DNA of 63,248 nucleotides, filler included, from Hausera hauseri (taxonomy: Eukaryota), in the NCBI GenBank assembly GCA_046269625.1. It is 12 parts of 12 records of this genome, joined end to end, with 100 filler letters (N's around TTAATTAATTAA, not from the genome) between each part and the next. Parts side by side here need not be neighbours in the genome. Positions count along the whole stretch, not along the records: positions 6,395 to 10,397 come from JBJURY010826639.1; 11 more parts are not named here. One strand, given 5' to 3'. The notes beneath the pieces are model-generated. The model worked only from the letters and a program-made list of their open reading frames with translations. It had not been told where the DNA came from and did no database searches. Made by a program: the position numbers and the translations under genes. Below, piece by piece: positions 6,395 through 57,481 of this stretch; positions within the stretch are counted from its first letter, which is position 1, and each line of letters starts with the position of its first letter.

Positions 6395-6770
6395 ACAAAT
6401 TCCAATTCGGATAGAAATCGAGGAAATTACAAAAGTTATAACTATCAAAATCATTACGATGATAATCGAAACAATGATAGTCGACGAAATATAGGTAGTA
6501 CATAAGGTTCGACGAATCTGTACAATAGAAGCCTAAATAAGAATAAGTCCCTGTACATGAAGACGGTAGACAGAGTGTAGACAGAAATGGAAATTTAGTT
6601 TGTTTTACTTGCAGAAAGGAAGGACACATCGCAAGGTTATGTCCAAATCCGCGTAGTGTCTCATTCGGCGAGTCTAATAAGACTAGTATGATTAAGGCCA
6701 ACAGGAACTTAGAAGCAAAATATGGTGGTCATGGTGATACAGGTACTATTATCGACATACAAGACTTGTG
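6395..6770 (+). pseudogene. Gag C-terminus with CCHC zinc knuckle
   Basis: CFTCRKEGHIARLC (Cx2Cx4Hx4C) at 6601-6642, preceded by an N/R/Y-rich low-complexity tract. Confidence 0.85.
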
Positions 6771-6999
6771 AAAATTTCTAAATGCTCAGCCTAAATCTGC
6801 AAATCCGCAAATTTTGATGATAGAGAAGAACATGGATATAAACTAAGACTATTAGAAGTGTATCATGGTTTAGCAGAGCCAAAAACTGAATATGAGTATG
6901 CGATAGCATCCAAGCGAATTGATATGACACGAAAAAAGAGTATTCATACGAGTAATAAAACTGCCGATACAGCAGGAACTTCGGAAGAAGTCGACTTAG

Positions 7000-9900
7000 A
7001 TGCATAGCCTGAGTTTATCGTTGAAAAAGTAGACAAAACTACTGAAGACGATATAGTTGAAAAAGAATTTATTGAGCCATTAATACTTAAAATTGCAAAA
7101 AATAGAGGTCGCAGCCCCTCATTGAAAACGAAGCGAAGAAGTCGTTCACATTCACAAGTAACTAGAGAGAAAATAGAAGAAACAAAAATACGAAAATCGC
7201 TGTAGAGAGCGACGTAGAGCCTAGATTAAATACGCCAGAAATTGGTCCATTCACATCTATAGAGCTAAAAGAATCTGCAGAGTCAATTAATGAAATTAAC
7301 GAGATTTGCCCATTCCCACAAATGAGGAAGAAATGGGAAATATTGATGATTTTTATTCAAGAAATTTAAAAGTCCGACGTTCGTGGAAAAATGCCGATAA
7401 ATTAAAGAAAATGAGAATTAGATGCCACGATCCAGAAATATTACAGCGAAATTTAGAAAGACTTAAGCAGATTAGTGAACAGGTAGATATATCCGGTAAG
7501 AAGCAACAATTTGCTGAGAGGTTATATAAAAGTTTAAAATTATGTAGTGAAGGAAAGCTCGATGAAGCAATCGACTTATGAAAACCTGAAGAGGTGCCAC
7601 CTGAAACGTTAATAAAATGGAAACGTGAATTAAAATCATGGATTAAAAGTGGAGTCGAATTATCGGAAGGATGGAGCAAAACTAAGATAGTGTCGATGTA
7701 AAAGTCTATAGCTCAGACGCTATTCTTCACCTTGGAAGCAAATCCATGACTAAAGAGAGTAGACCGTAATATAGAGCATATGATGGATGAGATTCTCTGT
7801 GCAATGATTAATCGGCTTAGAGAAAAACCGGTTAACCATCGAAGTGGCGTTGATTTAGAAATATTGAGTATAGACCCAGTAAATATTTCTCCCCTAATGG
7901 AAGTGATAAAAATCGCCTTCACGGTACCCAAACGGTATACAAACCTAGAGAATCGTATCAAAATGGAAAATGAAAGGTGGACACAAATTTGTAGTTTCAG
8001 AAACCGAATTATGTTCCTAAATAACAAAGAAACCAAATACGTAATAAAGGCTTGTATTGTAAAATTTGATGAATATAAGGACGAGTTCAGTTATGTTGGC
8101 CGGATTATGAATTTCATAAAAAGTCCAGATGATGAATTAAAGGATGCGTACAAGATGCTAGACAAGGTTATATTAGCAAAGCCGATAATAACTAACTAAC
8201 TGCGGGAATGGTCCGAATTAGTAGCAAGACTAAGTAAACTAGTGGAAGACCATAAGAAAGAATTTCCAGAGAGCGAACCTTCTATCAAGAAACAATTAGA
8301 AAAAAGTGCACGTAACTTGGATACAATACAAGCGGAAATAGATGTTCGGACTCAATTCGAAGCATTACGACAATTAAACTTTATGAAGAAGAAGCAAGAA
8401 GTGGCGATATTAAAAGTGATATATAAAATGATCGAAGAAACAAACTTTACAGAAAAGCGGAATATGACTTACGAGTTTCACCCAGGATTAATAAATGTCA
8501 AAGTAGAAGGAATCCAACATCTAACAGCTAAATCTATCGATGAAATTTCCATCTAGGATATCGAAACCTTAGATATTTGTCCAGAACATAAAACGACTAT
8601 AGAGAAAGTAATGAGATTCATACATAAGCCACAAGAATGTATAGCTGGAACAGGTCAAAATTGCCATACCGAGCTGACAAAAATAAGAAACCACCACCAT
8701 CTTCGTAAAGAAATTGTTCGATACAATAGATCCCGACTCAAAATTCATTAATGAGATGCACGAGTTAGCCCTTGTCTTAGTAGAAATGGCAGCGATTAGT
8801 GATGAGAAGATGAGACAATTGATGCCTAAAATAAGAGAGGTTGAAGAAACATGCATTAGAACTAAACAAAGAGCAACAAGGTTAGACGAATTAATAAAAG
8901 AGCTCGAAGTCTATCAGAAGAAATATGCTTTTACCGAGTCAAAAATCAAAAATAAGCGTGAATTTGTACAAAGATGGCAAAGAGGTATAACTATCGAACT
9001 AACTGATTATCATCAAAAGGGATTCGTCCATTCTAATGAACTAGGCAAACTACTGAAAATGATTCATTATGTCTGTGGAATCGGAATAGGGTTCTGGACT
9101 AGGCAGATAAAAGAAATACAACTGGTATTGAAAGAAATTAGAGAAAGCGAGCACAGAGCGAATACAACGTTGACAAACTATGGACTTCTATATGTTGGAA
9201 ACGAACCGGAATGGGATGCGTACTTAGATGCATTAACGGCCGAAAATCCTGTGACTCCAGTACAGCTAAACAAAATAGAAACGTGTCCGTAGAACAGAAG
9301 AATCGATGTGGAGATGCTCCTGGATTCAGCGCTAACTGAAAAAGATTTAACGGAACTAATTAACATAAACATTACTGAAAGTAAGTTAGGACAACGTATT
9401 CCGATTTAAACTAAACTATGCAGTGAGAACACAGTTTATAGTGCGGTGCCGAAACTTTTGATAAAGAAATACGCTAAAATCTTGAGGGCTAAACCTCAAG
9501 TAACGATGAAGGTAAGGATATCATCCCAGGGGATGGACGAAAACGAATGTGAGTTTACTACGTATTCCTATGTAAAGGACGTAAGAGAATGGCTAATAAA
9601 TAATGGTGGAACAAACGAGCTAAACTATAGATTCTATTTTAGAGGTAGAATACTAGACTATTTTGAACAGATAATAGACGTCGGAATCATTTCCGACGAA
9701 ACGAATTGAATAGTGGTGATAGTATCCAATGAACGGACTAAAGAAGAAGCCATGCGTAAGGCAAAAACAGAACAATGTGCATGATAAATCATGGGAGTCC
9801 GAGACGCTGCAATGTATTTTGAATATTTACAAACGGATGAAGACAAGGATCAATACGATAAAAATTTAGTTCTACTGAGTAAAAACTTAACCAATGTCCC

Positions 9901-10397
9901 AAGACAGAAACGCCCAGTCGGTAGGCCTAGGAAAATACGAGAAGTAACTGACTATAATGTAGAATTGATTAGAGAATTGAGACAGATGTCGATTCTTACC
10001 TTCAGCACAGACAATGAAGAATTAAGAGAATTAATGAAGAATTTAATACGTATTGTAAATTTTTCGAGCCTTCGAGGCGACACATTAGACAATAAAGTAT
10101 CAAAAAGTAATATAACCGATAAATCGCTAATCGAAAAGATCATGGTGGAAAACACCACTGAAGAATTAAGAAAAGTATCACTGTACTTAGCTATCAAAAT
10201 AAACCATAATCGAGAGAATGAAATTAATAGAGCTACAAGTTTAGCACGAAGAGCGGCGAGAAAGCTACCATGCGAAGTAAACTGCTCGAAATTATTCGAT
10301 AAGAAAGAAAACAAACGGTTCGGAAATGGCAATAGACTCGAAGATATGCTACGTAATTTGACAACGACAGATAATATTAACCGGAAAAACGAATCCA
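7000..10397 (+). pseudogene. Degenerate accessory polyprotein (helical region, ubiquitin-like domain, AT-hook), copy 1
   Basis: Fragments are collinear with the minus-strand ORFs of C5, e.g. RYTNLENRIK, YVKDVREWL.NNGGTNELNYRFYFRGRILD and PVGRPRK. Confidence 0.85.
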
Positions 10398-14772: not shown

Positions 14773-15290
14773 AACATTGCACATAACTTCGTCGAATACT
14801 CGAGGATAATTTTGTTCAAGTAATTTCCCACAACTTTCCAAAATTATACTGATGGAATTTATATTATCGACATTGGAGTTGTCCTTCAGTAGAACTTGTA
14901 GACAATGGAGGACGATTCTGCCATTGAGACAATTTTGAAGATACAATTTCGATATGAATCTCATGTTACCAAAATATGTGTCTTTTACTTGAGATATTTT
15001 CTCTTCTACACTTTCTTTGTATAGATTCTTCATTCGTTCGTCATTGTCCATCATTTGCACGAGATTTTGTTCAAAGAATAATTTGCATTTATTCAAAATC
15101 AGTGCCCGAAATGTTACCGTTTCACATTTCAAATCGAAAATTCGACTGCAGAATCTCGAATAGACTTTAGCGTATCCCGGTTCTTTGATGGCCTTATTGA
15201 ATATTTTATCACAGAGAAGTCCGACACTAGTTTCATCGGTAAAACTGCAACTTCTCAATTTTTTCAAACATGACTCGAAATTCTCTGGTT
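14773..15290 (-). pseudogene. eIF4G-type MIF4G domain fragment
   Basis: PENF..L, IFNKAIKEPGYAKVYSRFC, FRALILNKC, GNMRFISKLY and ILESCGKLLE. Confidence 0.85.
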
Positions 15291-15790
15291 CCGATTGCAA
15301 ATGTTGACAGTTTTTCTCTAAATTAGCTTTAATTTCTACCAACTCTTCTAATTCGACTTTTTTATCGTTAATCTTTTTGATTGCTTCCAAACAAGCTTCG
15401 ATGATACCAGAATCAAGAATATCACTTCCTGGTTTAAGACCTTGCCATTTATCTTTAAACTTTTCAATCTCTTGCTGAAACTGGTCTTTTTGTTAAAAGA
15501 CTGTCTCTCATCATCAATTGAAAATTTTCCATCATTAATTCAAACTTTGTCCATTTTTTATTGAATTTGAGCAACTGTATCAATGCCACCACCCGCTTTA
15601 TCTATTTGGGAACTTAGCCTAGTTCGATCTCTGTTAAATACTCCATATTTCTGGGTGTAGACGTACGCATAGAACTTTGATTGCATTTGTTAAATTTGCA
15701 TCAAAATTATCCACAGTTCCTTTGATATTTTTCCACAGTGAATTAAGAAGTGCGTCGGAATTGTTTTGAATTAAAGTATCAGCGGACATT
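15280..15790 (-). pseudogene. DYNC2H1: Cytoplasmic dynein-2 heavy chain tail fragment
   Basis: Across frameshifts it reads AGGGIDTV, KW.KFELMMENFQLMM and QEIEKFKDKWQGLKPG, matching the recalled DYNC2H1 tail AGGGLET..KWDKFELMMESHQLM..ELEKFKARWDQLKPG. Confidence 0.8.
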
Positions 15791-19990: not shown

Positions 19991-20191
19991 GGGGTAAAAC
20001 CATGCGCCACCAGGCGATTCAATTGTACAAAGGCCAAGAAATTCTATTGACCGGTTATTCCAGATATGAAATATTAAAATTTTNNNNNNNNNNNNNNNNN
20101 NNNNNNNNNNNNNNNNNNNNNNNNNNNTTAATTAATTAANNNNNNNNNNNNNNNNNNNNNNNNNNNNNNNNNNNNNNNNNNNNATACCTTT

Positions 20192-21646
20192 TTATGAGGT
20201 GACTTGAAATTTATCGTCTGTAATTCCTTTTGCTAGATTCGTTCCTGTCAGCTTGTTGGGAACGGCAGTAATACCTCCATTAGGTAAACTAGCCCAATCT
20301 GTTTCACTGCGTCTAAACATCGGCTGTCCTAAGGTTGCTTCACAATTCTTAAGAATGGTTGGTTGTGTCGCGTTATCCAACAACACTCTCGTCAATGGTG
20401 TAGCTAATCTTGGAGTATTTTGATAAATAACAGGAAGTTCCTGGATACAACGTTTTTCTTCTACATTGATGGGAACTTCTCTCTTTTCACATTTATAGGT
20501 TAATAACACTTCGTCCGTAACTCGACCAAAGATTCCTTCTCTCATGGGAATTATTGGAGAAGCCAATTCTGGGTTCGCATATATAAGAGCCATTTTAGTT
20601 CTCATGATTTCTGTGTCCAATTTGCAGTCGTTCATTATCATTTTATGTTATAATTCCGTTATTCCGACTTGTCCTTTATAGTAGAAGTAATCGTCTCTAT
20701 TTTTTAGGTAGTCCTCAATCCGAACATCCTGCGTTTTCAATTTGTAAGTTTTTGCGTTTATTTCTGTTTCGGCTACGACAAACGCTTCATAGTTTGTGGC
20801 AAACATTACTACGTCGCAACGAGTCATCATCTCTTTTTTTATAAATTTTAGTCCATGCGGATCTGAGATTAATACAGTAGGTGTACGGTGTTCTGATACA
20901 TCTTCGCGTGTCCTTGAGTTAATTTCTGATTTATCCACATATCGTTTTCCGGTAGTTTCATTAAACTTTAGCTCCTCAATTTTGATGAAATTACAGCTTA
21001 TTCCAGGAGGAGGTTCCCATATTATAACCGAACTTCTAAAAGCACATGTTCCTTCTTGTAAATGGCATTTTTGATTCTCAGTGTATAACTTAGTGACGCT
21101 ATGAAACATTACCTTCTGTGATCGCATTTCTGACTCGTAGAAATCCACAACTACTACGTTCGGTTCCAATCCTTTTCCGGTATCGTATTCTGCTCCATTA
21201 CAATGTCCGGTGTGCATGTCCAGTCTTCCAGCCACTATTTTGTATGCTCTGATTATTTTTCCTGGTTGCATTTCTAATTGCATACTGCCCCATTGTGCCC
21301 TTCCGTTCTCTTTGGTTTGTTTGCAGTGCTGACGTTGTAGGTTCATTGGAATTAGCGGGGTAGTTGGCTTAATTATGGAGAAATATCCGTGTATCAGGCT
21401 GCAGTGGAAAATACTGCGGGATCGTCTCAACATGCACTCCATTCCGTTTAATGATATCAATTCTTGTTGTTGATACAGGAAATAACTTTTCTCTCTTGTT
21501 TCTAGTTTGTGCGGTCTAGCATCCTCGCATGTTTCCAAATCCATTAAAGAATATCTTTGGCCTAGTTTAAACTTATCGCAATTGTAGACGGTTACCATGC
21601 TTATGTACTTTATTAGCATCATTAAGATGAGCAAGCTAACTAGCCA
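20192..21646 (-). pseudogene. Chuvirus-like class III fusion glycoprotein ectodomain (env)
   Basis: Internal signal peptide, then VYNC..YSLMDLETC, C.LRRSRSIFHC, GHCNGAEY, CHLQEGTC..IIW and, after one stop, EVLLTYKCEKREV..CIQELPV..PLTRVL. This Cys/motif pattern matches recalled chuviral glycoproteins. Confidence 0.8.
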
Positions 21647-24389
21647 ATTTGATTCGTTTTTCCGACCTCCAACGTCTGTCGTTGTCAGGCTACGTAACAT
21701 ATCATCAAATTTATTGTTGTTTCGCTTATTTTCTTCTTTGTCAAATAGTTTTGCCCAATTTACTTCACAGGGCATTCTTCTTACTGCTTTTTGTGCTAAG
21801 CTTATTGCCCGATTGATTTGATTTTCGCGATTGGGATTTATTTTGATAGCTAAGTATAATAACACTTTTCTCAACTCCTAGATGGTGTTTTCTACCATGA
21901 TCTTTTCTATTACTGACTCATCGGTTAAGTTACTTTTTGATAGTTTGAAACGTGAACTTTTCATCATTTTGGCTGCATTAAATATTATCTTTTCTTTATC
22001 ATCTAACACATCTCCCCGAAAACTAGAATAATTCACAATTCGTATTAAATTTTTCATCAGCTCAGTTAATTCGTCATTCTCCGTGCTAAGAGTTGGAATC
22101 GATATTTGTCTCAATTCTCTAATTAACTCTCCACTGTAATCTATTTATTCTCGCAATTTTCTAGGTCTACCTACTGGACATTTCAGTCTCGGACCCTTAG
22201 TGATTGATTCACTTAGTGGTACTAAATTTATGTCGTATTGTTCCTTATCTTTGTCCGTTTGTAGATACTCAAAATACAGGGCAGCGTCTCGGACTCCCAT
22301 GATTTGTCCTACGCATTGTTCTGTTTTAGCTTTACGTGTGGCTTCTTCTTTTGTCTGTTCAATAGCTATTACTGCCACTATCCGATTTTTTTCGTCGGGA
22401 ATAATCCCGACGTCTATCAATTGTTCCAAGTCATCTAATATTCTACCTCTAAAATAAAATCTGTAATTTAACTCATTTGTCCCGCCATTGTTTACTAGCC
22501 ATTCTCTTACGTCCTTTACGTAGGAATCTGTAGTCAATTCGCATTCTTTTTCGTCCATCCATTCGGATGACACTATTACTTTTATCGTCACCACAGGTTT
22601 AGCCCTCAAGAATTTAGCGTACTTTCTTATCAAAAGTTTTAGCACCGTACTATATATCGTGTTTTCGCTAGATAATTTAGTTAGAGTTGGAATAAGTTGT
22701 CATAGTTTATTTTCGGTCATATTTACGTTAATTAACTCAATCAAATCCTTTTCAATTAGTGCTGAATCCAGTAGCATCTCCACATTGAACCTCCTGTCCC
22801 GCGGACATGTTTCTATTTCATTTAGTTGTACTGGCGTCGTAGCTTTCCCGGAAAGTATCTCATCGAAGTATGCATCTCATTCGGGTTTGTTTCCGACATC
22901 TAGAAGTCGGTAGTCTACTAACGTCGTATTAGCTCTTTGGATGCTTTCCCGAATTTCCCTTAATCTAGGTTGTTTTTGTTTCATTTGCGTAGTTCGGAAA
23001 CCTACTCCATTCCCACAGGCATACTGGATCATTTTCAGTAATTCACCGAATACGTTTGAGTCGATGAGTCCCTTTTGGTGATAATCTGTCAATTCGAGAA
23101 TCACATCCTTTTGCTATCTTTGTACAAATTCTCGTTTATTCTTAATCTCTGATTCGGTAAGACCATATTTATTCCGATAGACTTCAAGCTCTTTTGTTAT
23201 TTCATCTAACTCTGTTTCTCTTTGTTTCGTTTTGATACATGTTTCTTCTACTTTCTGTATTTTGGGCATCAACTGCCTCATCTGATCATCACTGATTTCT
23301 GCCATTTCCAATAATAGATAGGCTAGCTCATACAACTCATAACCTTTGAATCAGGGTCCATTGCATCCTGAAAGCTAAAATGTGGGTCGTTTCCGATTTC
23401 TATCAACTTGCTATGGATGTTCTGGTCTGATCCGGCCATCCATTCTTGAGGTTCGTGTAGAAACCTTATTGCATCTGTTAACATATTTTGATATCCGGGA
23501 CAAATATCCAAGATTTTAATATCTTGTACCGAAATTTCGTCGATTGGTTTTCCTGTAGAGTATTGGACTCCTTCTAGTCGGACAATCCTTAACTTTAATT
23601 TTACATCATAAATCATATCCCGTTTCTCCGTAAAGCTCGTTTTTTCGATCAATTTGTAGATTTCCTCCATCGTTGATGCTTCTCGTTCCTGTTCCATAAA
23701 TTTTAGTTGTCGTAGCGCTTCAAATCGAGTACGGATGTCTATTTCTATTTGCAACGTGGCTAAATTGTGCGCACTTTCCTCTAATTGCTTCTTCACTGTT
23801 GGATCGCTTTGCGGAAATTCTGTTTTGCGATCTTCTACCAATCTGGTTAGTCGCATTACTAGTACGGACCATTCCGATAATTGATTTGCGATTACCGGTT
23901 TCGCCATTATGGCTTTATCTAGCATCTTGTAGGCATCTTCTAACTCATCATTCTGTCCTTTTAGGAAATTCGTAACTCGTCCGACATAACTAAACTCGTC
24001 CTTGTACTCGTCTAACTTTAAGATACAAGCTTTTATTACATATTGAGTATCCTCGTGGCTTGGAAACATAATACGGTTCCTCAACCCATAAATATATGCT
24101 CGTATTTCATTTTCTAATTTAATACGATTCTCTAAATTCGTATACCGTCTAGATACGGCAAACGTGAGTTTAATCATCTCCATCAAGGGAGGAATATCTA
24201 CTAGGTCTATACCAAATATTTCTAAATCGACATTACTTCGATCAACAACCGGTTTTTCTCTAAGTCTGTAAATCATTGCTAGGCGAATTTCATCCATCGT
24301 ACACTCTAGACTGCGAGTTGCTTTCTTTAATTTCGGGTTTACTTCTAGAGTGGATAGTAATGTCTGAGATTTAGTGACTTTTACGTCAA
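21647..24389 (-). pseudogene. Degenerate accessory polyprotein (helical region, ubiquitin-like domain, AT-hook), copy 2
   Basis: Homologous to C2. UBL at ~22370-22595, GRPRK at ~22160; the last segment runs in frame into the glycoprotein. Confidence 0.85.
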
Positions 24390-41120: not shown

Positions 41121-42847
41121 GATTCTTGCGGTTTTTTAACCACTGTAGTGGTTTATGATCAGTGTAAATAACAATAGGTTTGGTTTCCGATAAATATTGG
41201 TCATCTAACGTATAAACTATTGCAAGTAATTCACGTTCGATTGTTGAATAGTTCTCTTCATGTTTTTTTAATTTTCTTCCTTCAAACAATATAGGATGTT
41301 CTTGTCCTTGATCATCCTTTTGTGATAAGACAACTCCGATTCCAATTTTACTTGCGTCCGTTGCTAAGAAATATGGTTTCGACATATCGGAGTACGCTAA
41401 TATAGGTGGGGCTAATATATTATCTTTCAATTGTTGATAAGCCTTTTGACATTCTTGAGTCAAAACAAGTTTAGAATTTTCCTGTAATAATGAATGTAAC
41501 GGTGAAGCTATCTATTGGTAATTTTTAACAAATTTTCGATAGTAGCTTGTGAGGCCAAGAAACTTCGGGACTCCCTTAAGCGTCTTTGGTACCGGAAAAT
41601 CTTGGATTTTATTTATTTTTCAAATCTGAGGACTAATGCCTTTTCGACTTGCCGTGTGACCCAAAAAGTCTACTTTTGTTGGAGCAAAACAGCATTTTTA
41701 TTCCAAGTAATGCACACCTCCCCAACATATCTTTAAGATGTTCTTTATGTTGCTTATAATCGATTGATGCAATTATTACATTGTCTGCCTAACACATTAT
41801 ATGTGGAGCATCCATCGTATTTATGTCCATGGCCGTTTGAAATGTTCCTGGGGCATTTTTCATTCCGAGTGCCATGCGGTTAAATTCATAATGTCCGTCA
41901 GCAATTACGAAAGCTGTCTTTTATTTATCCTCTTCTTGAACTTCTATTTGCCAGAATCCTTTTTGTAAATCTAACGTAGTGAATAACGTCTTATCCTTCA
42001 ATTTATCCAATATTTCGTCGATTCTGGGTAGCGGATAAGTGTTGTCTATAGTTATTTCGTTCAAGGCACGGTAATCCACACAAATTCTAATTGACCCATC
42101 TTTCTTTTGTACCATTACAATTTGAGCTAACCATGGCGAATTGCTTGGTCGGATTATATCATGTTGTTTCATCTCGGCTATTATTTCTTTTGCCTCTTCT
42201 CTTTTATCATAATTAAGCCTATACGGTCTCTTTTCGATGGGAGTCTCCATTCCTTGTTTTAATTTAATGCCATGTTTGATGACTGATATTATTCCCATAT
42301 CATATTCATCTATTGCGAATACATTTTCATATTGGTGTAATATTTTTATTATACCTTCCTTTTCTGCACCTGTCAATAGACTTTCTTTACCAAATAGATC
42401 ATAGTCATTCCAATTGATGGGAGTTTTAACAAATTTTGTTATTTTCTTATTTTTGTTGAGATGGCTTTTTAATTTATTTATTGGTTCATTTTCTAATCGT
42501 ATTCCGCTTTCTGTTCATGTTTTACGTCGCTGTTTTTCCCTGAATTCTGACAACTACTGTACAGTAGAAATAATAGCTTCCTTTGCATTATTGCCTATAT
42601 CTTTTACGATATATATAGGCAATTCGTGTGCCTTTTCTCAATAGTTTTGGTTTGTTTGAAGTATTGGCTATCCGAACAATTACTTGTTGTTCTCGAATAT
42701 TGTCTATCGTATGAGCAATCCATAATTCATCCTTATTTATAAAGTTTACATTTGGTTTGATGTATACATCTCCTTTATCTCGGCCTTCTACTAGAGCTTT
42801 GGGCACAATCTATGTTCTAGATGGTATTAACACATCTTCCTTAATGG
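41121..42847 (-). mobile_element. Ty3/gypsy pol remnant (RT, RNase H)
   Basis: IIRPSNSPW, RICVDYRALN, YPLPRID, LDLQKGFWQ, TDASKIGIG, ERELLAIV and TDHKPL. Confidence 0.95.
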
Positions 42848-44606
42848 ATACACATATGAACTACATCTTTGATTTTCCTTTGGCAGGAAAGTCGTTATAG
42901 GCATATTGGTACTGAATATTTGTTTTTCCGACTTGGTGAAAGAAATCCAGTGCTATTTATAGACATTGTAAAAATCTTCATAATTGGTTTGACACACTAC
43001 TTCACATGTAGGGCATATATAATACTGAACCCGGTTGTATAGATGACCAAAAGTACTTCTTCATAATACTGTGGCAATTTTCATTCTCTGTAAAGATTGC
43101 ACATCTAAAAATCAACCAACTATTTTGAGGAGCACAATTAAAAATCTCACCATTCGTTGAAATGATTTTGGAAGTAATGAAATATATTACCATTTCAACA
43201 TATACTGCCTCTCTTATTGATTGGTTTTAATGCACTTTTGTTTTAATGCATCAATTAAATTAAATACATGTCGGTGCCAAATTTAAAGTTTTCGACCATG
43301 GGGAATGGAATGACGTCATTAGTTTCTTCGAATAATGCATGCTTGATCGAATATTCTAGTTCGAATAGCTAAGTATTCAACTCGGAAGCTCGAATTCGAA
43401 TAGCTAACATCATATTCCAGTTCAACATACGTGACTTTTTATCCCGGCCCTCTTATGGATTTATTGATTTCCGCATCACTGGGCTTTAAATGCACATTTT
43501 GCTTAGTTCGAAATATTGATTTTGTATCTATATAGTACATTTTCATGAAATAATTTTTATGGATAAGGGGGCTTTCATATATGAGGAATCGATTGCCGCT
43601 GTTAGATTTTTCGAATAGTTCGATTGCCATAGATTGCCATACTCGATTTTCTATCTATCCCCGCTAATTATAATATCGAATTTTGCTCCCTTGAGGCCTA
43701 AAAGGCCTATGGGGAATCTGTCCCAGTTGCACTTTGGATGGATATTATTCGACATCTATTAGATAAATTTAAATTCTAATTGCACATTCATATACTGCAT
43801 TATGTTTGTGTTTGAATGCACCCAGTCACATGTCCTAATAATCAATATTGGAAATATCTGAAATCCGATATTATTGATTTTTGCACACTTGTACATGTGT
43901 TTTTGCACTGTACAGTATATATCAAGGTGCACCTCGATGTGCTCTACCTACGTACACTTGACCCCGATCGATTCCATTATTCCTACGCTGCACAGTGACC
44001 ACTATGTGAAAAGTGAAAAAGTGTCTTGGCAACCGTATCCAAGAGCATCTCCGCCTTGAGTATTGCACTGAACCATAGTACATCAAGTACTCTACCCGTC
44101 AGTATATGTGCCATATTGATATTATTTATTTTCATTTCATAGCGGAAAGGCCGATTGTAAGTCTGCCTCAGTTGGCAATTATTCGAAGACCAATCAATAT
44201 ATTTAAATTCTAACTGCACATTCACATAATGCATCGTGTGTGTTTTCTATTGCACGCAGCGCCGGGTACTAATCGTCGATATTGGGATTATCGGAAATCT
44301 TATATTATTGGTTTTTTCACACTTGTGCGTGTGCAGCACATCTGCGCAGTGCACTAATCGATGTGCACTGAAGTGCACTATCGATTATCACTTTTCCCGA
44401 TCGATTCGATCAATTGTGTAATGTGCAGCGACCGATTTGTGAAAAGTGCAAAAATGTGCATAGCAAAGGTGCGTAGCGGCACCGTCGCCTAGCACACTAT
44501 TAATCGATAGTGCATAGTGTGCATTATCGATTGCCACATGTGAAAATTGATTTATCGATTACTCCTCCCCCCGGGGTGGGACAGAACATACATTTTTTCC
44601 CTACTA
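42848..44606 (-). mobile_element. Palindrome-rich DNA element terminus, copy 2
   Basis: Reverse complement of 34086-35883; terminus TAGTAGGGAAAA. Confidence 0.8.
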
Positions 44607-48348: not shown

Positions 48349-49029
48349 CTGTAAAATACATCAAGGAAATCTTATAATAACAAATTCTGGTCAACAGACA
48401 GGTTTGCTACTGGCCCCAGCAGCATGGTTGATCGTGTCTACAAAGTGTTTCCTACTGCCTGGAGGAATTCAGTCCACAATAACAATTATGAAAATGGTAA
48501 AGTTCTGTACTTTCCTTTATTCCAACTTCTAATTTTCTCCATTTTTAACTTCTCGAGTTCTTCTATAAGTTTGGCATTTATATATATCTATTGCCGCCTG
48601 AACTATTTGAATTATATATTTTAAATTCTTTTATTTTTCTGTTTTCCTATTTATCTTGATTAACAATTGATAATTTCGAATTTTTCCACTCGTTTAATCC
48701 ATTGGGTAATTGCATACACTGATTAGTTGAATAATAAGTTTCTGTATAGTGATTAAATAATAATTGTTCGTTAAATTCCACTTGCTATTTTCGGTTTCAA
48801 TTTTGTTATTTTCACTTTCTATTTACATTTTTACAATTTTTGCGTCCGTTTTACAACATTTCTCCTCCCTAAACGGCACTCTCCGATGCACCCATTGGGT
48901 CAGAAGAGGTGCTGCGCAAACGGTTCATTTGTCCACGTAAGTCCGCTTACGAATCCCATTCATCTTGCGGAGATCGCGGGTCAAAATGGTATGATTTGAT
49001 GAGTTTTTCGGGCGATATCTCCACTATGT

Positions 49030-52000
49030 TTTTAATCTCCATTAGCGAAATATTTTAGTCTAGTAGCTTCCGCTCTGCACAGTAGACAGGTCGTTTTCCC
49101 GTTTTACAAGGTCCGCGTTTCTAAACAGTATCGACAGTGTTTGTGGGTAAAATCCTTATTATCCAATACCACAAATCCTTGGTATAGGTTTGCATTGCAA
49201 ACGGGGCATTTCTCTTTTTCGCCTCCGTCTATGTCTACAAGGTTTTTGTCCACTTCAGTGCGTTCGAATACTAGTCCTATCCTATCTTGGTATAATTATC
49301 CATATAGTCGTTTTTGCTTAGTATCTGTAGAGCTTTTCTTGGGGTCGTCTGACACAGTAACCAAGGTCCATTCAACGATTTCTTGTTTATCCAAGTCGAG
49401 TAATTCGGTTTTCTTGTATTGTCTCTTAAGTTGCACTCGAACTTGGATATCCACTGGGACAGTTAGCCGATTGGTTCAATTTTTCAATTGAAATATCGGG
49501 GCTAGGTACTTACCAATGGTTGTCTTCTCGGGCGTAACCGTTTCCGCTTACAAGTCTTCTAGGAACAGTAGAGATATAGAATATAGCTTCTTTGATCTTG
49601 CCTTTGCTTTAATATTCAGCCATAAGGAGTATTCTGGTATATTCTTTAACCTGGTTACTATGATTGGGGCTAGTTCTCCCCAGTTTCTTCGAAGTACATT
49701 CACCTCTGTCTTGTGTGGTCTACATTTAAGGGTTTTCATTTCCGGTTCGCTGGTTTTCTCGTCTTCTTGTCTTTTTAGTTTTTCTGTGGGTTTCGTTGTT
49801 TCTTCTTCATGGATGGATATAAGTCTGCTAGTTGACGGTTTTATCTCTTCCACCTGGTTTTTACTGGTCTTACTTTCTTTTTACTAATATATTCAAAGAA
49901 AGAAGTTTTTGTTTTTTGTCCTTTCGGCAGTTCTCCCATATTCGACTTCTCGCCTTCCACTGTCTTTTGGGAAGCTAATCCAATCTCAGTTTGGGTCTGA
50001 CTGATTGATAGTTTTTGCTGATTTCTGTACGTTTTAATTGGGCTGTTTTGAACTGTCACTTGGAAACTGTTATGTCCTTGTGGCTCAGTTTGTCTATATA
50101 TTGGATAATCACAAAATCCTTTCCGGAATTTTTGAACCAAGATTTTTGGGTTGTTGTCGGAGTTCATATTTTGTCTGGGTTCTCTTGGTTTCCACTCGTG
50201 TTTCCATCGTAAGGAGATGTAAATATCTCTTATAAGTCGCGTTCGATGATTTGTTGCTATCAATTTGGGAAATTTGAACTGTTTGCCATTCATGGCTTCT
50301 AACAACATTTTGAACTGCATTTCAAGTGATGCTGAAAGGAGTAGACATCCCTTTTGCTTCATTAGGGTGTTTTCTACTCGGCTTGCAACCGATAGATTGC
50401 GACTTAGTTCACGAATCACCGCTGTATATTCCTGTCTAATTCCTAGTCTTTCTAGCATTTCGTGTACTCTGAATCCAGTTACAACTAATCCGTATAATCA
50501 GTGGCTTATGTCTTGTTGAATTTCTAAGAAATCCTTGCCCTTTACAAGTTGCAGTTTTGTGATTCCGGTAACGTCGGGAAATGTATCCTTTACTTTGGTT
50601 CGAGGTGCAATTATTTTGTTTATGAGTTCGTCTCGGTTTACACGTCGGATATATACTTCGATTGAGGTGTACCATCCGTAATCCTTCTCTCCATAATTTA
50701 CGGCTAAGATTCAAATATTCCGGCCGTCTCGAACTAAACTGAAAGACTCTCCACTTTGTTCAATTTCATCTTCGAGGGCTTCTGCATGAATAATAAGGGT
50801 GTAGCGGTTTCTTTGTTTCAGTCCGCAGGGCTAATTCGAACATCAGTTTGATCGGAAGTTCGGCGACTCTTAATTGCAAAGCATAGCCCATGAGACTATA
50901 ACAACACAACTCGTATGAACTAAATTTTTACTGTTGACCTATTTGTGTATTCCAGGATTGTCCTGTATTGGATTTCGCCATCAGCGACATGTATGTACAA
51001 TTGCTGATGCGTCGGCTCACGAGGAATCATATCTCTCAGTAGACATGCTCGCGCATCCTTTGGGTTTCGCATCGCGTATAATCAAATTAATCGATTGTCC
51101 TCTAGACCCGATTTTAATCCATTCGTTATTCTGTTTTCTTGATCTATTTCTGCATAAGTTTTGTTTTTCGGAATTTCTCCAATTTGGCGATATAGGCTTT
51201 TGGTAGTCGGTTTCAGAACTGTCACATGTTGCTGTAGGAATTCGATGTCGTAACTGAGACTGTTAGCTGAGTTCTTCGCCTCTTTGGCCATACTTGCTCT
51301 GCTAAAATAAAAATAAAGGTCAATCCTAAGACAGATCATGGTTTTGAAACAAAACATTTTCTTTGTCTGATGATGGGATAACCGATCTGTAATTGTCAGG
51401 TTATGCCATCATAAATTCCGCTTCGGTATCCTCTTTCCCGTTTATCCCTCTGTTGATTTCGACGTCGATTACTAAAGTTTTTGCAAACTACAAAAATCAT
51501 CGCGGTTAATAAAGCTAGAACAAAAATTTACAAGCTTATTATAGCTATCATCGGTAAATTATTTGTTTTAATCAAATTTTCCGTGGTGATTGCATTTTGA
51601 GTGCTCGTCTCTTTATATTGCATTACGCGAACTTCGTCGCTTAAGGTCTGAACTATCAGGGTCTTGGACCTCTTATCCTTTGCGGTAACTTGAATTATGT
51701 CCGCCAATTCCTTCTTGGGCAATTTACTTGTCGGAATGATGTTGGTAGTGAGAGTTGTTCTTGGAACGGTAGTCGGTTCTCTCGTAGATGTTGAGAGCGA
51801 TAGTTCCCATATTACGTCCTTGGGGCGGTATCTTCTCAATTACGTACTCGGCTCTTTTGGTTAAGTATTATACAAATCGAATTGTAATTGGTAGTTGTAT
51901 CCTAACGGAATATCTACGGCACACAGTAAGCCGTCGTCGTGCAAGATAACAATATTCTGGGGTGGGAGTTGAAGAATTTAATGGCATAAATAGGATAGAA

Positions 52001-52179
52001 ATTTATCTGTCTCCCGGTAATTCTATTTTGGTTATGATTCGGATACATTGGTTTTCGAAGTCTTTAGAAATTCCGATAATGTTGAAATCTATCAGTCTTT
52101 TAAATGGGTCGATGTTTCGGACTATCTCGTCCGTCTTGTTTCGGTTCGCATCGTACCGTTGAGGCATTCTATTTTGAAT
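49030..52179 (-). pseudogene. Degenerate orphan ORF series: Thr-rich stalk plus TM protein, and a long ORF ending in a RING finger
   Basis: TM IAIISL*IFVLALLTAMIFVVC near 51500; CPVC-x17-HKHCRYC-x12-CLLCR at 49077-49208. Confidence 0.6.
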
Positions 52180-52279: not shown

Positions 52280-52675
52280 TCGACCTAATAAATATCCATC
52301 TAATATTTGACTAATTGTGTTTTGTTGATGTTTTATCGACCTAATAAATATCCATCTAATATTGGACTAATTGTGTTTTCTTTATGTTTTGTCGACCTAA
52401 TAAATATCCATGGAATGCTTTTTATGAGAATGAGAAATTGTTTTTGTTTTATTTTTTTTTTAATGGTTAATAAATATCCATCTAATATTTGACTAATTGT
52501 GTTTTCTTGATGTTTTGTCGACCTAGTAAATATCCATCTAATATTTGACTAATTGTGTTGCCTTCATGTTTTGTCGATCTAATAAATACCCATCTAATAT
52601 TTGACAAATTGTGTTTTCGTAATGTTTTGTCAACCAAATATTTGGTCAATTGTGATTTCTAGATGTTTTATCAAT
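52280..52675. repeat. 56-bp tandem array (about 6-7 units) next to Maverick genes
   Basis: Unit TCGACCTAATAAATATCCATCTAATATTTGACTAATTGTGTTTT... starts at 52280, 52336 and 52392 and resumes near 52468. Confidence 0.95.
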
Positions 52676-52806
52676 ATACTAAATAAAATTTATATTTATT
52701 TAATAAAATCGTTTCATTAACCTACAATAAAGCAATAAATAAAAAAAAACATTATCCAAATTATATTTCATTAATCTAATAACCATACACCAGATTTAAA
52801 CTCGTT

Positions 52807-53481
52807 TTATTTGTAATCATAACGGGCTTCTTTGACAATCCATATCGGTAGTTTTATACCATTTCTTTCTTGGTATCCACATATTTCCACATTTATTCGA
52901 CACTTGGCTGAACTGGGCATTGTGTCTAATTCCCGACCAATAACGTCTAACAGTCGAGCTTTTTGTCCAGGAATATAAACTGGTGCATTGAACCGTTCAA
53001 AGGAATTTTTAACGAAGTCCAACTCAGAATCAACTGATTTCAATGTCGAACGAAGACTGTTCATATCACGTTCGCTGACATCCTTTACCTGGTATGCTAT
53101 CTTGGATTTAGTAAGAATAACCGGATCTGTCATTTCAACGGTAATCGGCTCTTGCAAGAAATAAAATAGCCGATTTTTATGTTCATGATTAACTTTCTTT
53201 TGTGTTGCAGGCTTTAGACATAGTTTTTTGCCTGTATTCAATTTGATTTCTTGACGACGTTTTTTATTATTCTTATTTATACCAGTATCAATCATTGCAT
53301 TCTGTCGTTGAAAACTTGGTTTTGATTCTAACATTTGTTTTCCGGATTCTTCTGACATTATATCCTCTATATTTAAATTGTCTTTTTGATCACTGTTACA
53401 TTCGGTATTGATATCGTCATCAGACAAAAGACCAAATAACCAATCTTCGGATATGACATGGTTGTCGGATAAGGAATCCAT
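52807..53481 (-). CDS. Hypothetical protein (acidic N-terminus, basic patch, globular C-domain)
   Basis: Intact 224-aa ORF co-oriented with the TBP-like gene. Confidence 0.7.
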   Translation of the reverse strand: MDSLSDNHVISEDWLFGLLSDDDINTECNSDQKDNLNIEDIMSEESGKQMLESKPSFQRQNAMIDTGINKNNKKRRQEIKLNTGKKLCLKPATQKKVNHEHKNRLFYFLQEPITVEMTDPVILTKSKIAYQVKDVSERDMNSLRSTLKSVDSELDFVKNSFERFNAPVYIPGQKARLLDVIGRELDTMPSSAKCRINVEICGYQERNGIKLPIWIVKEARYDYK

Positions 53482-53558
53482 TGATTAGAATAAATGGAAA
53501 ATGGATTATAGTTTGTTCATTTATAGTTGAAAACGAAATGATAATTACATTGATACGT

Positions 53559-54014
53559 TTAAACAATTAAATTCAGAATGTTTGTAATTATTCCATTAAC
53601 GGTTTCAAAGTATTCTAGTGACTTTAAACCAACAATTACAATCTTTCCGGAACTGAAAACATTTACGCACAAAGGTCGGTACATATTAATACGAAGGGCT
53701 GGAAAAAATTCTGGTTCGAATAAACTGTCAACTCTCCTGGATAATTTATGAAGATTTATTGAAATTCCAAGAGTATATGTAACTGTAATCGATTGAATAC
53801 CATCAATTATAATTATGAAATTGTATTCACTCATCTGTATTTGATGTTGAAGTATTGGTTTCCTACAACCCATAAGACGGCATTTACCTGTTTGAAAAAC
53901 AATTAAACTGAAATCTGGAAGTTTCAGAACACATTGTCGAGGCTTCCATTCATTGAATTTTAAACTTTCAATGGAACCCGAAATGTGACCCTGATAGTTT
54001 ATATTGGATAACAT
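53559..54014 (-). CDS. TATA-binding protein-like, reduced
   Basis: Two TBP-type repeats: LIVFQTGKCRLMG and IQSITV..INLHKL..FEPEFFPALRI..VNVFSSGKIVIVGLKS. Confidence 0.88.
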   Translation of the reverse strand: MLSNINYQGHISGSIESLKFNEWKPRQCVLKLPDFSLIVFQTGKCRLMGCRKPILQHQIQMSEYNFIIIIDGIQSITVTYTLGISINLHKLSRRVDSLFEPEFFPALRINMYRPLCVNVFSSGKIVIVGLKSLEYFETVNGIITNILNLIV

Positions 54015-54105
54015 GATTGTAATACAAATATTATTTCATTTATATACTAATTGATTTGCCCACTTCATTCCAACATCCATTTCATTTCATTTCAGGTGAG
54101 AAAAT

Positions 54106-54573
54106 ATGGAACAAATTTGTTATTGCAATATGGATGATTATAGCCATTTACCGAAAAGAATGAGTAATGGAGCTGCAGGCTATGATCTTTTTTCCGGTGA
54201 AACATTTATTCTAGAGCCACATAGTCAGGAATTAATTGACACGGGAATTCGGTTAATAATTCCTGAGGGATACTATGGTCATATATGCTCCAAAAGTGGA
54301 TTGGCAAGCAAGTACAATATACATGTTGGTGCGGGTATCGTGGATTCTGACTATCGAGGAAACATTAAAATTCTTCTAATCAATCATTCTAAAACGCCAT
54401 ATCCAATACTTACTGGAGAAGCTATCGCACAAATGATAATGAAAAAATATGAAACATTCAGTTTCAAATTCTTATCAGCAGAAGATTTCAACAGTAGCTA
54501 CCATAGTACGATTCGAGGAAATAAAGGTTTTGGACAAATGACAAAATTGAATTATGATTGTAATGATAAATGA
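54106..54573 (+). CDS. dut: Trimeric dUTPase
   Basis: AGYDL, KSGLA, GIVDSDYRG, IAQ and RGNKGFG (motifs 1-5). Confidence 0.95.
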   Translation: MEQICYCNMDDYSHLPKRMSNGAAGYDLFSGETFILEPHSQELIDTGIRLIIPEGYYGHICSKSGLASKYNIHVGAGIVDSDYRGNIKILLINHSKTPYPILTGEAIAQMIMKKYETFSFKFLSAEDFNSSYHSTIRGNKGFGQMTKLNYDCNDK

Positions 54574-54681
54574 ATAAAGTCGGTATTTGAAAAATTCTGT
54601 TTTTGCTTACAATGTAAATTGTACCAAAGGACAATCAATAAATACTATAAACAATTAAGATAAAAAATCCACTGCATCAAT

Positions 54682-55326
54682 ATGCTATTACAAAACAATG
54701 CTGTTTTTCAAATAGTTGGACCGAGCGGAAGTGGTAAAACTCATTTTGTTTGCAAATTACTTCAGAAAGAAAATTTATTTCAAACAGCTTTTCGACACAT
54801 TTATTGGCATCAAGGTGGTGGTGGCGAGGCAGGAATAACTGGGAAAGAATTTTGTAAGCTGAAAAATATATCTGTAATAGATGGATTTGATAAAAACTGG
54901 TCCGATAGATTAAAACATGGCGATGTTATAGTTATAGATGATCTCTACCAGGAAGCCAACAAACAGGGTGATTTCAATAATCTGTTTACGAAAATCGCAC
55001 GTCATAGAAATGTTACGGTTATATTCATTACACAGAATTTATTCCATCAAGGCGGTCATCATCGAACAAGGAACCTGAATGTTCACTATTTGGTTTTATT
55101 CAAAAATCCCCGAGATCAGACTGTAGTGGATTTTGTTGCTAGACAGTCATTTCCCCATAATAAGGGGTTTCTCATCGATGCATTTCATGATGCAACATTA
55201 AAACCTCATGGATATTTGTTTATTGACTTTACACAACAATGTCCAGATGATGAACGTGTTAAAAGTGATATATTCAATTTAAAAAAAATAACGGTCTATA
55301 AACAAAATAAGAAAAATGGAAAATAG
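54682..55326 (+). CDS. Maverick packaging ATPase (A32/FtsK-like)
   Basis: GPSGSGKT, VIVIDDL, ARHRNVTVIFITQ, LFKNPRD and HGYLFID. Confidence 0.93.
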   Translation: MLLQNNAVFQIVGPSGSGKTHFVCKLLQKENLFQTAFRHIYWHQGGGGEAGITGKEFCKLKNISVIDGFDKNWSDRLKHGDVIVIDDLYQEANKQGDFNNLFTKIARHRNVTVIFITQNLFHQGGHHRTRNLNVHYLVLFKNPRDQTVVDFVARQSFPHNKGFLIDAFHDATLKPHGYLFIDFTQQCPDDERVKSDIFNLKKITVYKQNKKNGK

Positions 55327-55336
55327 TATCTTTCAA

Positions 55337-55489
55337 ATGAAGAATCGAAACACGAAGAGATCATTGTTGTCTTATAAACCAAAGCGAAGAAAAAGAACAA
55401 AACGATCAAAGAAGCAGAAGGGTAATGGTATTATAAACAAATATAAACAGCCAGTCAGGAGACGTAAAATACGTAGAAATGCGTTTTAA
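55337..55489 (+). CDS. 50-aa K/R-rich core protein (pVII/mu-like)
   Basis: MKNRNTKRSLLSYKPKRRKRTKRSKKQKGNGIINKYKQPVRRRKIRRNAF; below the ORF-track cutoff and fills the gap between its neighbours. Confidence 0.75.
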   Translation: MKNRNTKRSLLSYKPKRRKRTKRSKKQKGNGIINKYKQPVRRRKIRRNAF

Positions 55490-56309
55490 AAAAGTTCATA
55501 TGAATGTTGATGGTGATAGTAAGAATAGTTCACCAAAACTAAGACGGTTTTCTCGGAGTATACCATATTTCAAATCGTTACTCAGAGCCCCAGCAAACAC
55601 TAGATGGAAAACAATTCATTCAATGCCTCCCTTTGTTCTCAATGATTTTATGTCGGTTTTGCAACAGATTGTTTTGGGTCGTGTTGATATTGGAAAGCAA
55701 AAACAAAGATTGTCCAAATACAGAGAGGTACTCGTTGATATGGCGAAAGCTGTGAGTTTAGCAGCAAAAAAACGGGTTCTTGAAAATCGCTTTCCCGTTG
55801 AACAAATTGGACAACTTAAAGGTAGAAAAAAGAAAAGAGAAAGAAAAGCCATCGAACAACAGTATTTTGGATCTGCAAAAACTCATCAGGTAGGAGATGG
55901 ATTATTCAGTGCAGCGTTGGAAATTTTAGGTAAATTAGGTTCAACGATGAATGAGCAAAACACACCACATGCACTGATCAGACGGATAAAACAACAAAAT
56001 GGTGGATTTTTATTTAGCCCAATTACTTTGGCTAGAGGATTGATGTCACTTACACAAGCGGCAACTAATCCAAACTTTATACATGATGCAGTCCAAATAT
56101 TAGCAAAGAACAATGTCATAAGGAAACCAATTGATAATAATCAAGACGGAAATGGATTTGTTTGGGCAGCTTTATTGCCGATTTTAGGTGCGATAAAAGC
56201 CGCAGCAATTCCAGCTGCGATTACAGCAGGGAAAGCCGCTGCCGTTGGAGCAGCACAAGCAATTGGTGGTTACGCAGCAAAAAAGGCAATTGATGCTGTT
56301 GCTGAATAA
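55479..56309 (+). CDS. Maverick basic virion protein with pX-like hydrophobic C-terminus
   Basis: Basic helical N-domain, then QVGDG, QNGG and QDGNG motifs, each followed by a hydrophobic segment, e.g. FVWAALLPILGAI. Confidence 0.75.
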   Translation: MRFKKVHMNVDGDSKNSSPKLRRFSRSIPYFKSLLRAPANTRWKTIHSMPPFVLNDFMSVLQQIVLGRVDIGKQKQRLSKYREVLVDMAKAVSLAAKKRVLENRFPVEQIGQLKGRKKKRERKAIEQQYFGSAKTHQVGDGLFSAALEILGKLGSTMNEQNTPHALIRRIKQQNGGFLFSPITLARGLMSLTQAATNPNFIHDAVQILAKNNVIRKPIDNNQDGNGFVWAALLPILGAIKAAAIPAAITAGKAAAVGAAQAIGGYAAKKAIDAVAE

Positions 56310-56355
56310 ATAAATGTATAAACAAATATGTATATATCTTTGTTTTCTTTAATTA

Positions 56356-56625
56356 ATGGGACCTGTTCAATCTCTTCCGAATATTAATTTTACCATTCGT
56401 TCAAATTGTTGTAATACTGATGATGACGATGATAAAGTTGATGGAAAAACTGTGGTTCAATCCCGAAGAACCAGTTGGTTATACCGGAGTTTCAAAGCTC
56501 GCCAAGGCCGCAAAGACAACAAAGAAACTGACAGCAGATTGGCTCAGGATGCAGCTGGCATACAGCTTGAACAAACCAATGAGAAAACGGTTTCCAACTC
56601 GAAAATATCGAGTGGCGGGAATTAA
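56356..56625 (+). CDS. Small ORF overlapping the integrase start
   Basis: MG start, SNCC, acidic run then a basic stretch; lies in a different frame from the integrase. Confidence 0.4.
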   Translation: MGPVQSLPNINFTIRSNCCNTDDDDDKVDGKTVVQSRRTSWLYRSFKARQGRKDNKETDSRLAQDAAGIQLEQTNEKTVSNSKISSGGN

Positions 56626-57481
56626 TGAACTCTGGCAAATGGATTTGATGGAAATGATTCCGTACGCACGAATTAACGATGGTAACAAGTATATATTGAC
56701 ATGCATAGACGTATTTAGTAGGTATGCACGTGCCATGCCTGTTAAGAGTAAGTCTGCAAAAGACATTAGTAAGGTTATATCTTCCATGCTTAAAGATGTA
56801 CAGCCGAAATCCATTCAAACGGATTTGGGTAAAGAATTTTATAACAGCTCTGTGAAAGGCATACTAAACAAATATGCCATTAATCATTATTCCGTATTTT
56901 CGCAATACAAAGCTCCACTTGTCGAAAGATTCAACCGAACATTGCGAGGTCGGCTTAACAAATATTTCACAAATCAGGGTAAAAAGACGTGGATTCACAC
57001 TTTACCAAAAATTATCAATGCTTATAATTATTCTGAACACCGAGGTCTCAATGGTATGCGACCAGTTGATGTTACCAATGACTTAAGTACTTGGTTAATG
57101 CAATATGATAAAAAAACCGAACACAGAAAAACAAAACCTAAGTACAAAATCGGTGATTTTGTTCGTATTTCGAGAATCAGCACTACACCATTTATTAAGA
57201 ATTTCAATCACAACTGGAGTGATGAAGTCTTCCAAATTTTCGAAATAAACACCCAGCAAATGCCTGTTATGTATGTGATACAAGATGAAGATGGACAGAT
57301 TATTCAGGGTAAGTTTTACGAAGAAGAATTACAGGTATTGCCGGCAAAACCCGATATATACCGAATACAATCAATTCTTCAAACAAAAGGAAAAGGTAAG
57401 TATAAACAATATCTTGTTAAATGGCACGGATACACAACACCTACATGGATTTCCAGTAATCAGATTCAAACAAAACAATGA
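56420..57481 (+). CDS. Maverick retroviral-like integrase with chromodomain
   Basis: WQMDL, CIDVFSRY, QTDLGKEF, VERFNRTL, YKIGDFVRIS, NWSDEVF, GKFYEEELQ and YLVKWHGY. Confidence 0.96.
   Translation: MMTMIKLMEKLWFNPEEPVGYTGVSKLAKAAKTTKKLTADWLRMQLAYSLNKPMRKRFPTRKYRVAGINELWQMDLMEMIPYARINDGNKYILTCIDVFSRYARAMPVKSKSAKDISKVISSMLKDVQPKSIQTDLGKEFYNSSVKGILNKYAINHYSVFSQYKAPLVERFNRTLRGRLNKYFTNQGKKTWIHTLPKIINAYNYSEHRGLNGMRPVDVTNDLSTWLMQYDKKTEHRKTKPKYKIGDFVRISRISTTPFIKNFNHNWSDEVFQIFEINTQQMPVMYVIQDEDGQIIQGKFYEEELQVLPAKPDIYRIQSILQTKGKGKYKQYLVKWHGYTTPTWISSNQIQTKQ

Follow-up and report, generated by a model that had tools for sequence, protein, structure and literature searches.

Probable Burro-type giant retroelement copies with a selected cargo region between a Gag knuckle and an in-frame fusion glycoprotein

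The window analyzed here is a 63-kb stretch of DNA in which 12 contigs, each 4-7 kb long, are linked through identical N44-TTAATTAATTAA-N44 spacers within which stop codons are present. These contigs are short pieces of animal DNA; the window is not a virus genome. On contig 2 (C2; 6395-10397, the entire contig) we found a CCHC zinc knuckle followed by a long cargo region under selection, and on contig 5 (C5; 20184-24389, minus strand) a second copy of this cargo joins in frame to a PF24664 fusion glycoprotein, with no pol in between and with many diverged copies of the region in sequencing data. C2 and C5 are two decayed copies that have diverged from each other; the many-copy element from which they derive is most probably a giant Ty3/gypsy retroelement of the Burro type from a flatworm, with its pol predicted to lie beyond the contig ends. 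Taken together, the two copies likely represent a single long frame that encodes, in this order, a Gag knuckle, a cargo of helical and coiled-coil parts, a probable ubiquitin-like domain (UBL), a motif resembling an AT hook, a block of helices, a membrane segment and, last, a fusion glycoprotein (Table 1).

C2 begins 70 codons 5' of the knuckle, within a low-complexity stretch which, judging from its position, is likely the end of Gag, the capsid part being off the contig. The motif scan identified a single CCHC knuckle on C2. From this knuckle to the end of the contig there are 1,251 codons, and a plus-strand path through 5 frame changes encounters 13 stops in 1,333 codons, compared to ~104 expected for random DNA of the same composition. 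This path was picked by eye, so the stop count is slightly flattering; the independent check is the ratio of nonsynonymous to synonymous substitutions (dN/dS) described below. A Pfam search of all six C2 frames returned nothing but the knuckle, and a motif scan for protease, reverse transcriptase (RT), RNase H and integrase came up empty for the protease, YxDD, RNase H and HHCC patterns alike. The same Pfam search picked up RT and RNase H elsewhere in the window, on contigs 3 and 9, and so was able to see such domains in this material. An earlier note on this DNA had described the knuckle as followed by decayed, co-oriented coding sequence free of protease, RT and integrase, and these data bear that description out, with neither the motif scan nor the six-frame Pfam search placing a protease or RT behind the knuckle.

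The second copy provides the independent check on this coding region. By blastn, positions 7695-10395 of C2 are colinear with 24387-21651 of C5 at 72.5% identity over 2,756 columns, and the C5 copy starts downstream of the knuckle. Codon comparison of the two copies gave a dN/dS of 0.146 over 322 codons of the first cargo segment (X1) and 0.148 over 530 codons from the second segment (X2) to the end, with the lowest value, 0.066 over 146 codons, in the block just 5' of env. The cargo region was thus real coding sequence under purifying selection (dN/dS ~0.15). Such low dN/dS values at a dS between the copies of ~1.0-1.6 indicate that C2 and C5 come from two old subfamilies, each of which kept its frame before decaying.

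The join to the glycoprotein is visible in C5. The earlier note had remarked that the C2 copy halts at the residues RKNES, where its C5 homologue enters the glycoprotein signal peptide, but the contig simply ends two bases later and the halt has no biological meaning. In C5, RKNES runs directly into hydrophobic residues 558-581 of protein P0005, which form the one strongly hydrophobic stretch among the six proteins scanned and are likely an internal signal or anchor for the envelope protein (Env). The glycoprotein matches the Monjiviricetes fusion glycoprotein family PF24664 over profile positions 5-430 of 653; it contains one internal stop and 14 cysteines and is cut by the contig end, C5 ending inside the env ectodomain. 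When the proteins of C2 and C5 were searched by tblastn in the ten remaining contigs, no continuation emerged, and no locus extending C5 was found in viral or metagenome contigs. Protein database searches, which were word-limited and weak, returned nothing at E ≤ 1e-3 for either the X2-to-env read-through or the env-region proteins.

The region is also present in many copies. We counted these in one public run (run X1) that contains the DNA with a share of words of 0.31 and that may be related to the source of the stretch. At an identity of at least 80%, 10,689 contigs of this run matched C2, covering 30 of 30 bins; 406 were at least 99% identical, 1,362 fell at 95-99%, 3,769 at 90-95% and 5,152 below 90%, such that 8,921 of the 10,689 were less than 95% identical. 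These matches represent many diverged copies and do not give an exact copy number. No RNA datasets were listed as carrying the C2 DNA.

Table 1. Features of the two copies, with coordinates in the window
Feature	Position	Strand	Evidence
Asn/Arg/Tyr-rich low-complexity stretch	6395..6600	+	translation
CCHC zinc knuckle, nucleocapsid type	6601..6642	+	Pfam PF00098 (zf-CCHC) E=6.9e-5, above cut-off; motif scan
Charged linker with Arg/Ser-rich patch (~7104-7157) and several frame changes	6643..7299	+	translations; A-rich strand bias like neighbors
X1, ~480 codons, 5 in-frame stops	7300..8748	+	61% amino acid identity to C5 over 322 codons; dN/dS 0.146
X2, predicted coiled-coil hairpin (~8790-9190) plus helical linker	8750..9487	+	dN/dS 0.18-0.21
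Probable ubiquitin-like domain	9488..9730	+	Pfam ubiquitin E=0.014 in the C5 copy; 76% amino acid identity; dN/dS 0.156
AT-hook-like basic motif, GRPR core at 9911	9908..9934	+	motif scan; alignment, kept in both copies
Strongly conserved helical block directly 5' of env, cut by contig end	9950..10397	+	dN/dS 0.066 over 146 codons
Diverged second copy, X1 through helical block	21651..24389	-	blastn 72.5% over 2,756 columns; alignments
Hydrophobic segment, in frame with cargo	21578..21650	-	Kyte-Doolittle peak 2.28; translation
Mononegavirus/chuvirus-type (gB-like, class III) fusion glycoprotein ectodomain	20184..21643	-	PF24664 E=7.7e-32

The closest published counterpart to this layout is found in Burro1-4/GYPSM1, the giant Ty3/gypsy long terminal repeat (LTR) retrotransposons known from dugesiid planarians (Arkhipova and Yushenova 2019, PMC6431247, citing Jurka 2007 and Grohme et al. 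2018). These elements are described there as exceeding 30 kb, with LTRs, very many copies and one open reading frame (ORF) of ~4,900-5,100 residues. Its order is Gag (with an N-terminal retrotrans_gag motif and two or three CCHC knuckles), Smc, MATH, Ubi2/SUMO-like and BCL2-like domains, Env, protease, a dUTPase-like domain, RT, RNase H and integrase, the Env lying in frame and matching mononegavirus fusion proteins. The same account places MATH_TRAF_C in the ORF1 of S. mediterranea and not in that of D. tigrina, and reports decayed Burro fragments with stops and frameshifts from Dugesia japonica. Like Burro, the C2/C5 family has a knuckle followed by long non-Pol cargo (here 1,251 codons free of a pol domain) with a predicted coiled coil, a probable ubiquitin/SUMO-like domain, a predicted helical block and, in C5, an in-frame mononegavirus-like Env placed before any Pol, and it too comprises very many copies (10,689 contigs of one run) and decayed fragments. 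This agreement with the published domain order of Burro ORF1 suggests, by analogy, a Burro-type element. Unlike Burro, C2 displays one knuckle, no MATH domain is seen (as in the D. tigrina ORF1), and an AT-hook-like motif lies between the UBL and the helical block, a term absent from the text of PMC6431247. BIR and ankyrin domains were likewise not found on C2 or C5.

A glycoprotein gene not preceded by pol is also known from a second set of elements. The errantiviruses of Nematoda, Bryozoa and Platyhelminthes carry an env of the gB type, the class to which chuvirus-like glycoproteins belong, in the order GAG-ENV-POL, the only layout reported for them (Chary and Hayashi 2026, PMC13524379). The survey covers intact elements, with GAG taken from the 5 kb upstream of ENV, and includes six Schmidtea elements (Smed_errantivirus_1-6) with up to 215 near-identical copies; we infer that these elements are Burros. 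Like these GAG-ENV-POL errantiviruses, which have an HSV/gB-type Env (HSV, herpes simplex virus), the C2/C5 family has a chuvirus/gB-like Env and lacks a pol between gag and env, the equivalence of the two glycoprotein classes being that of PMC13524379. It also shares a block of env residues, TPTV..G.KFIKK..C..ATNY, which in a comparison by eye, not an alignment, can be seen in the six Schmidtea envs of the supplement. In the supplement file FIKK occurs once, in Smed_errantivirus_1; ATNY occurs five times, at the block position only in Smed_1 and Smed_5; and the rows with TPTV are two from Schmidtea and three from insects. Unlike the surveyed elements, the C2/C5 family is decayed and has ~1,250 codons between knuckle and env, a cargo not described in the part of the survey drawn on here; the word ubiquitin has 0 occurrences in it (PMC13524379). 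An env without a preceding pol is a layout in print since 2019. The suggestion in the earlier note of a rearranged giant retroelement stands as far as it concerns an env-bearing element that lacks a pol between gag and env, but this is the published Burro/GAG-ENV-POL layout and not a new rearrangement.

These comparisons also bear on an alternative in which C2 and C5 are not kin to Burro but come from something that gathered similar cargo and has its pol elsewhere in the element, either an independent GAG-ENV-POL lineage of Ty3/gypsy or a BEL/Pao element whose glycoprotein is chuvirus-like. GAG-ENV-POL elements are not monophyletic (PMC13524379), chuvirus-like glycoproteins also occur in the BEL/Pao elements called Anakin (PMC7642597), and we obtained no direct sequence link to the Burro cargo. 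Against this, the succession of knuckle, coil, UBL, helical block and in-frame env repeats the Burro order (PMC6431247), and the env motif block resembles that of the Schmidtea envs. The BEL/Pao version has the further difficulty that envelope genes there lie downstream (3') of the polyprotein (PMC7642597), whereas no pol precedes env here, and neither a protease nor an RT, RNase H or integrase that would indicate a BEL/Pao-type Pol polyprotein was found between knuckle and env. Anakin, a mosquito BEL/Pao group with a chuvirus-derived glycoprotein (Dezordi et al. 2020, PMC7642597), resembles the C2/C5 family in that an LTR retroelement has captured the same broad class of glycoprotein and defective copies are common. 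Unlike the C2/C5 family, it has a BEL/Pao pol and an envelope 3' of the polyprotein, and no large cargo is reported for it in the part of PMC7642597 drawn on here. We consider an independent lineage unlikely.

The earlier note had also proposed a non-autonomous enveloped element. In such a case C2 and C5 would be members of a pol-less gag-cargo-env family, a satellite of a Burro-like helper. Under strong selection this family would have retained Gag, the 1,250-residue cargo and a class III fusogen; it would provide the particles and the envelope itself and be packaged and copied by the helper's Pol acting in trans. Such elements would be unreported in the flatworm lineage, and our literature search for pol-less gag-env LTR elements gave no relevant report. 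No pol is seen in either copy, and defective glycoprotein-bearing LTR elements are described from mosquitoes (PMC7642597). However, the position after env at which Burro-type elements hold their pol is outside both contigs and out of the stretch, C2 and C5 ending earlier. Because the contigs end before the expected pol position, they lend no support to non-autonomy. Strong purifying selection over a dS of ~1-1.6 is what would be expected of an autonomous lineage, although a helper-dependent family with its own Gag and Env could show the same. We regard a pol-less satellite as quite improbable.

Whether the knuckle belongs with the cargo was assessed from the molecules across their junction. 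Were the knuckle a nested insertion or the product of an assembly chimera, the cargo and env could be a piece of an endogenous RNA virus or of another element. The knuckle is present in one copy only, C5 starting 3' of it, and among the matches listed no contig of run X1 bridges the whole of 6695-6834. On the other hand, strand, frame direction and composition are equal on both sides of the junction, with a base composition (A 0.38-0.42, AT skew 0.20-0.31) that stays even from the knuckle through to env. Depth is continuous over 30 of 30 bins, and among the matches listed there is no position at which many molecules start or stop. One contig of the run covers 6423-6695, and single contigs link 6655 to 6732 and 6665 to 6821. 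Burro, moreover, predicts exactly such a neighborhood of knuckle and cargo (PMC6431247). Given the uniform composition, the joining contigs and the lack of a shared break point, a nested insertion is unlikely; no sign of an insertion boundary was found, and we assign this explanation as a whole a very low probability.

The individual cargo parts support the Burro-type reading to differing degrees. Two AlphaFold models were built from two-sequence alignments (pLDDT, the predicted local distance difference test score, of 32 and 41), and four fold searches with these models returned generic coiled coils or hairpins only, which neither support nor exclude UBL, BCL2 or MATH folds. Structure prediction of the region behind the knuckle, which the earlier note had recommended, did yield a nearly all-helical X1 that includes a helical hairpin, though at low confidence (pLDDT 41) and with no Pfam, PDB or Atlas assignment to a family. 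The heptad peak of X2, likewise predicted as mostly helical, was equalled in 4 of 100 shuffles while that of X1 was not above shuffles, and residues 14-148 of the X2 model matched generic coiled coils only (Z up to 9); such matches of low-confidence models include SMC arms. These results favor a coiled coil in X2, Smc-like by analogy, with no homology to Smc implied. The UBL region was modeled as strand-strand-helix-strand-strand, a beta-grasp-like order (local pLDDT ~28, model pLDDT 32), and matched UBL4A at E=1.4. Its position ahead of the helical block fits the Ubi2/SUMO-like domain of Burro, and it is probably, on weak support from sequence and model, a ubiquitin-like domain. The AT-hook-like motif has no Pfam match. 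The helical block, with six helices in a low-confidence model, occupies the location of the Burro BCL2-like domain; no Pfam, PDB or ESM Atlas match was found for it, the fold search barely covering the block, and in the ESM Atlas neither X1 nor the block had a match of at least 0.9. PDB sequence searches gave nothing significant, NCBIfam gave sub-threshold noise only, and locus searches for relatives found none in viral or metagenome contigs. Of the order gag-X-UBL-AT-hook-env put forward in the earlier note, the in-frame env of C5 and the lack of a pol in between are confirmed, while the UBL stays below the Pfam cut-off and the AT hook amounts to a GRPR motif without Pfam support.

Several points weigh against the Burro-type reading. 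No Burro protein was aligned directly, and membership in the group rests on domain order, an env motif recognized by eye and host lineage. No single molecule in the stretch carries both knuckle and env, and, as noted above, no listed contig bridges the interval at the knuckle-cargo junction whole. The contigs do not extend to Pol, the LTRs or the Gag capsid. One knuckle is visible on C2 as opposed to two or three in Burro, although the contig start may cut others. The ubiquitin match (E=0.014) is below the cut-off and was obtained for the C5 copy and not for the C2 copy. BCL2-like and MATH domains were not detected by Pfam or by fold searches, for which both models were too poor (pLDDT 32 and 41). 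TPTV and ATNY occur singly in some insect and bryozoan envs of the supplement to PMC13524379, at other or similar positions.

Further points concern the lineage of the host. The MTMR14 gene on contig 8 (38409-39524) has three trematode proteins as its best matches, and among the 120 best of 995 matches no planarian is listed. In a tree sampling 19 of these 120 matches it groups with six trematodes (support 100/99). These data suggest that the host is probably a flatworm, assuming one source for the contigs. Counting against the Burro-type reading in turn, the tree was sparsely sampled (19 of 120), its MTMR14 branch is long (2.27) and flagged as unsure by the tool, and the 12 contigs could stem from more than one organism.

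A candidate for the pol of the C2/C5 family, unlinked to it, is found on contig 9, where Pfam identified a Ty3/gypsy RT and RNase H (41121-42850, minus strand). A stretch 5' of the RT (~42610-42851) appears dUTPase-like by eye and has no Pfam match; Burro has a dUTPase-like domain in such a position. The upstream side is cut by a 1.8-kb repeat that is 78% shared with contig 7, and an RT on contig 1 (355-713) is related to that of contig 9 (71% nucleotide identity). With this stretch and with the same A-rich strand bias as the C2/C5 family, contig 9 suits a Burro pol. We considered the bias as a tie between the contig 9 RT and the C2/C5 element and rejected it, as a BEL-like piece on contig 12 is also A-rich. 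Given that the RT cannot be linked to C2 or C5, that the dUTPase-like stretch lacks a Pfam match and that the bias is common to the BEL-like piece, contig 9 counts for little.

With their stops and frame changes, the C2 and C5 copies are unable to make the polyprotein. An intact Burro-type element would, by comparison with Burro and the GAG-ENV-POL elements, make one polyprotein, with the hydrophobic segment threading Env into the endoplasmic reticulum. A C-terminal anchor of Env would bring the chain back to the cytosol for the part that follows, made up of protease, dUTPase-like domain, RT, RNase H and integrase, and the protease would release the pieces of the polyprotein. Gag particles bearing the class III fusogen might then pass between cells and integrate. 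That the cargo would target ubiquitin, chromatin or apoptosis pathways of the host is speculative, both here and in the literature.

Burro-type elements are little studied; a literature search on their names matched 3 records and listed 2 papers, and the name is mentioned once each in PMC11410931 and PMC13238120, as far as the parts of these papers drawn on here go. The C2/C5 family is evidence that the odd Burro cargo is not junk, as two subfamilies at a synonymous divergence of about one or more changes per site kept it at a dN/dS of ~0.15, and ~0.07 directly before env. It adds an AT-hook-like motif that goes unmentioned in the Burro description as given in PMC6431247 and, should the host be a different flatworm, may carry the group outside the Dugesiidae.

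Other contigs of the window carry further mobile-element and host sequences. Contig 10 has a decayed, A-rich coding stretch (48900-52179, minus strand) in which a hydrophobic helix lies near 51500 and a Pfam match below the cut-off (E=0.005) points to a RING-like finger near 49100-49210, followed by an EGF-like exon near 48400 recognized by eye; the stretch could represent accessory ORFs of a giant element. Contig 11 (52280-58106) begins with a 56-nt tandem repeat and contains a Polinton/Maverick-like cluster of a TBP-like protein, a dUTPase, an A32-type packaging ATPase and an integrase with a chromodomain. On contig 4 (17174-20083, minus strand) there is a row of four ORFs, 134-370 codons long, of which one has a hydrophobic helix and none a convincing Pfam match, and contig 12 (58207-63248) has several ORFs of 116-369 codons, also without a convincing Pfam match, followed by the piece judged BEL/Pao-like by eye. 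The same 77 bases occur at both ends of contig 6 (24490-24566 and 29375-29451), either as a tandem-repeat unit or as an assembly circle. Long uninterrupted ORFs of host type encode, besides MTMR14, a MIF4G domain (14773-15492) and a diacylglycerol-kinase-family domain (2322-2885).

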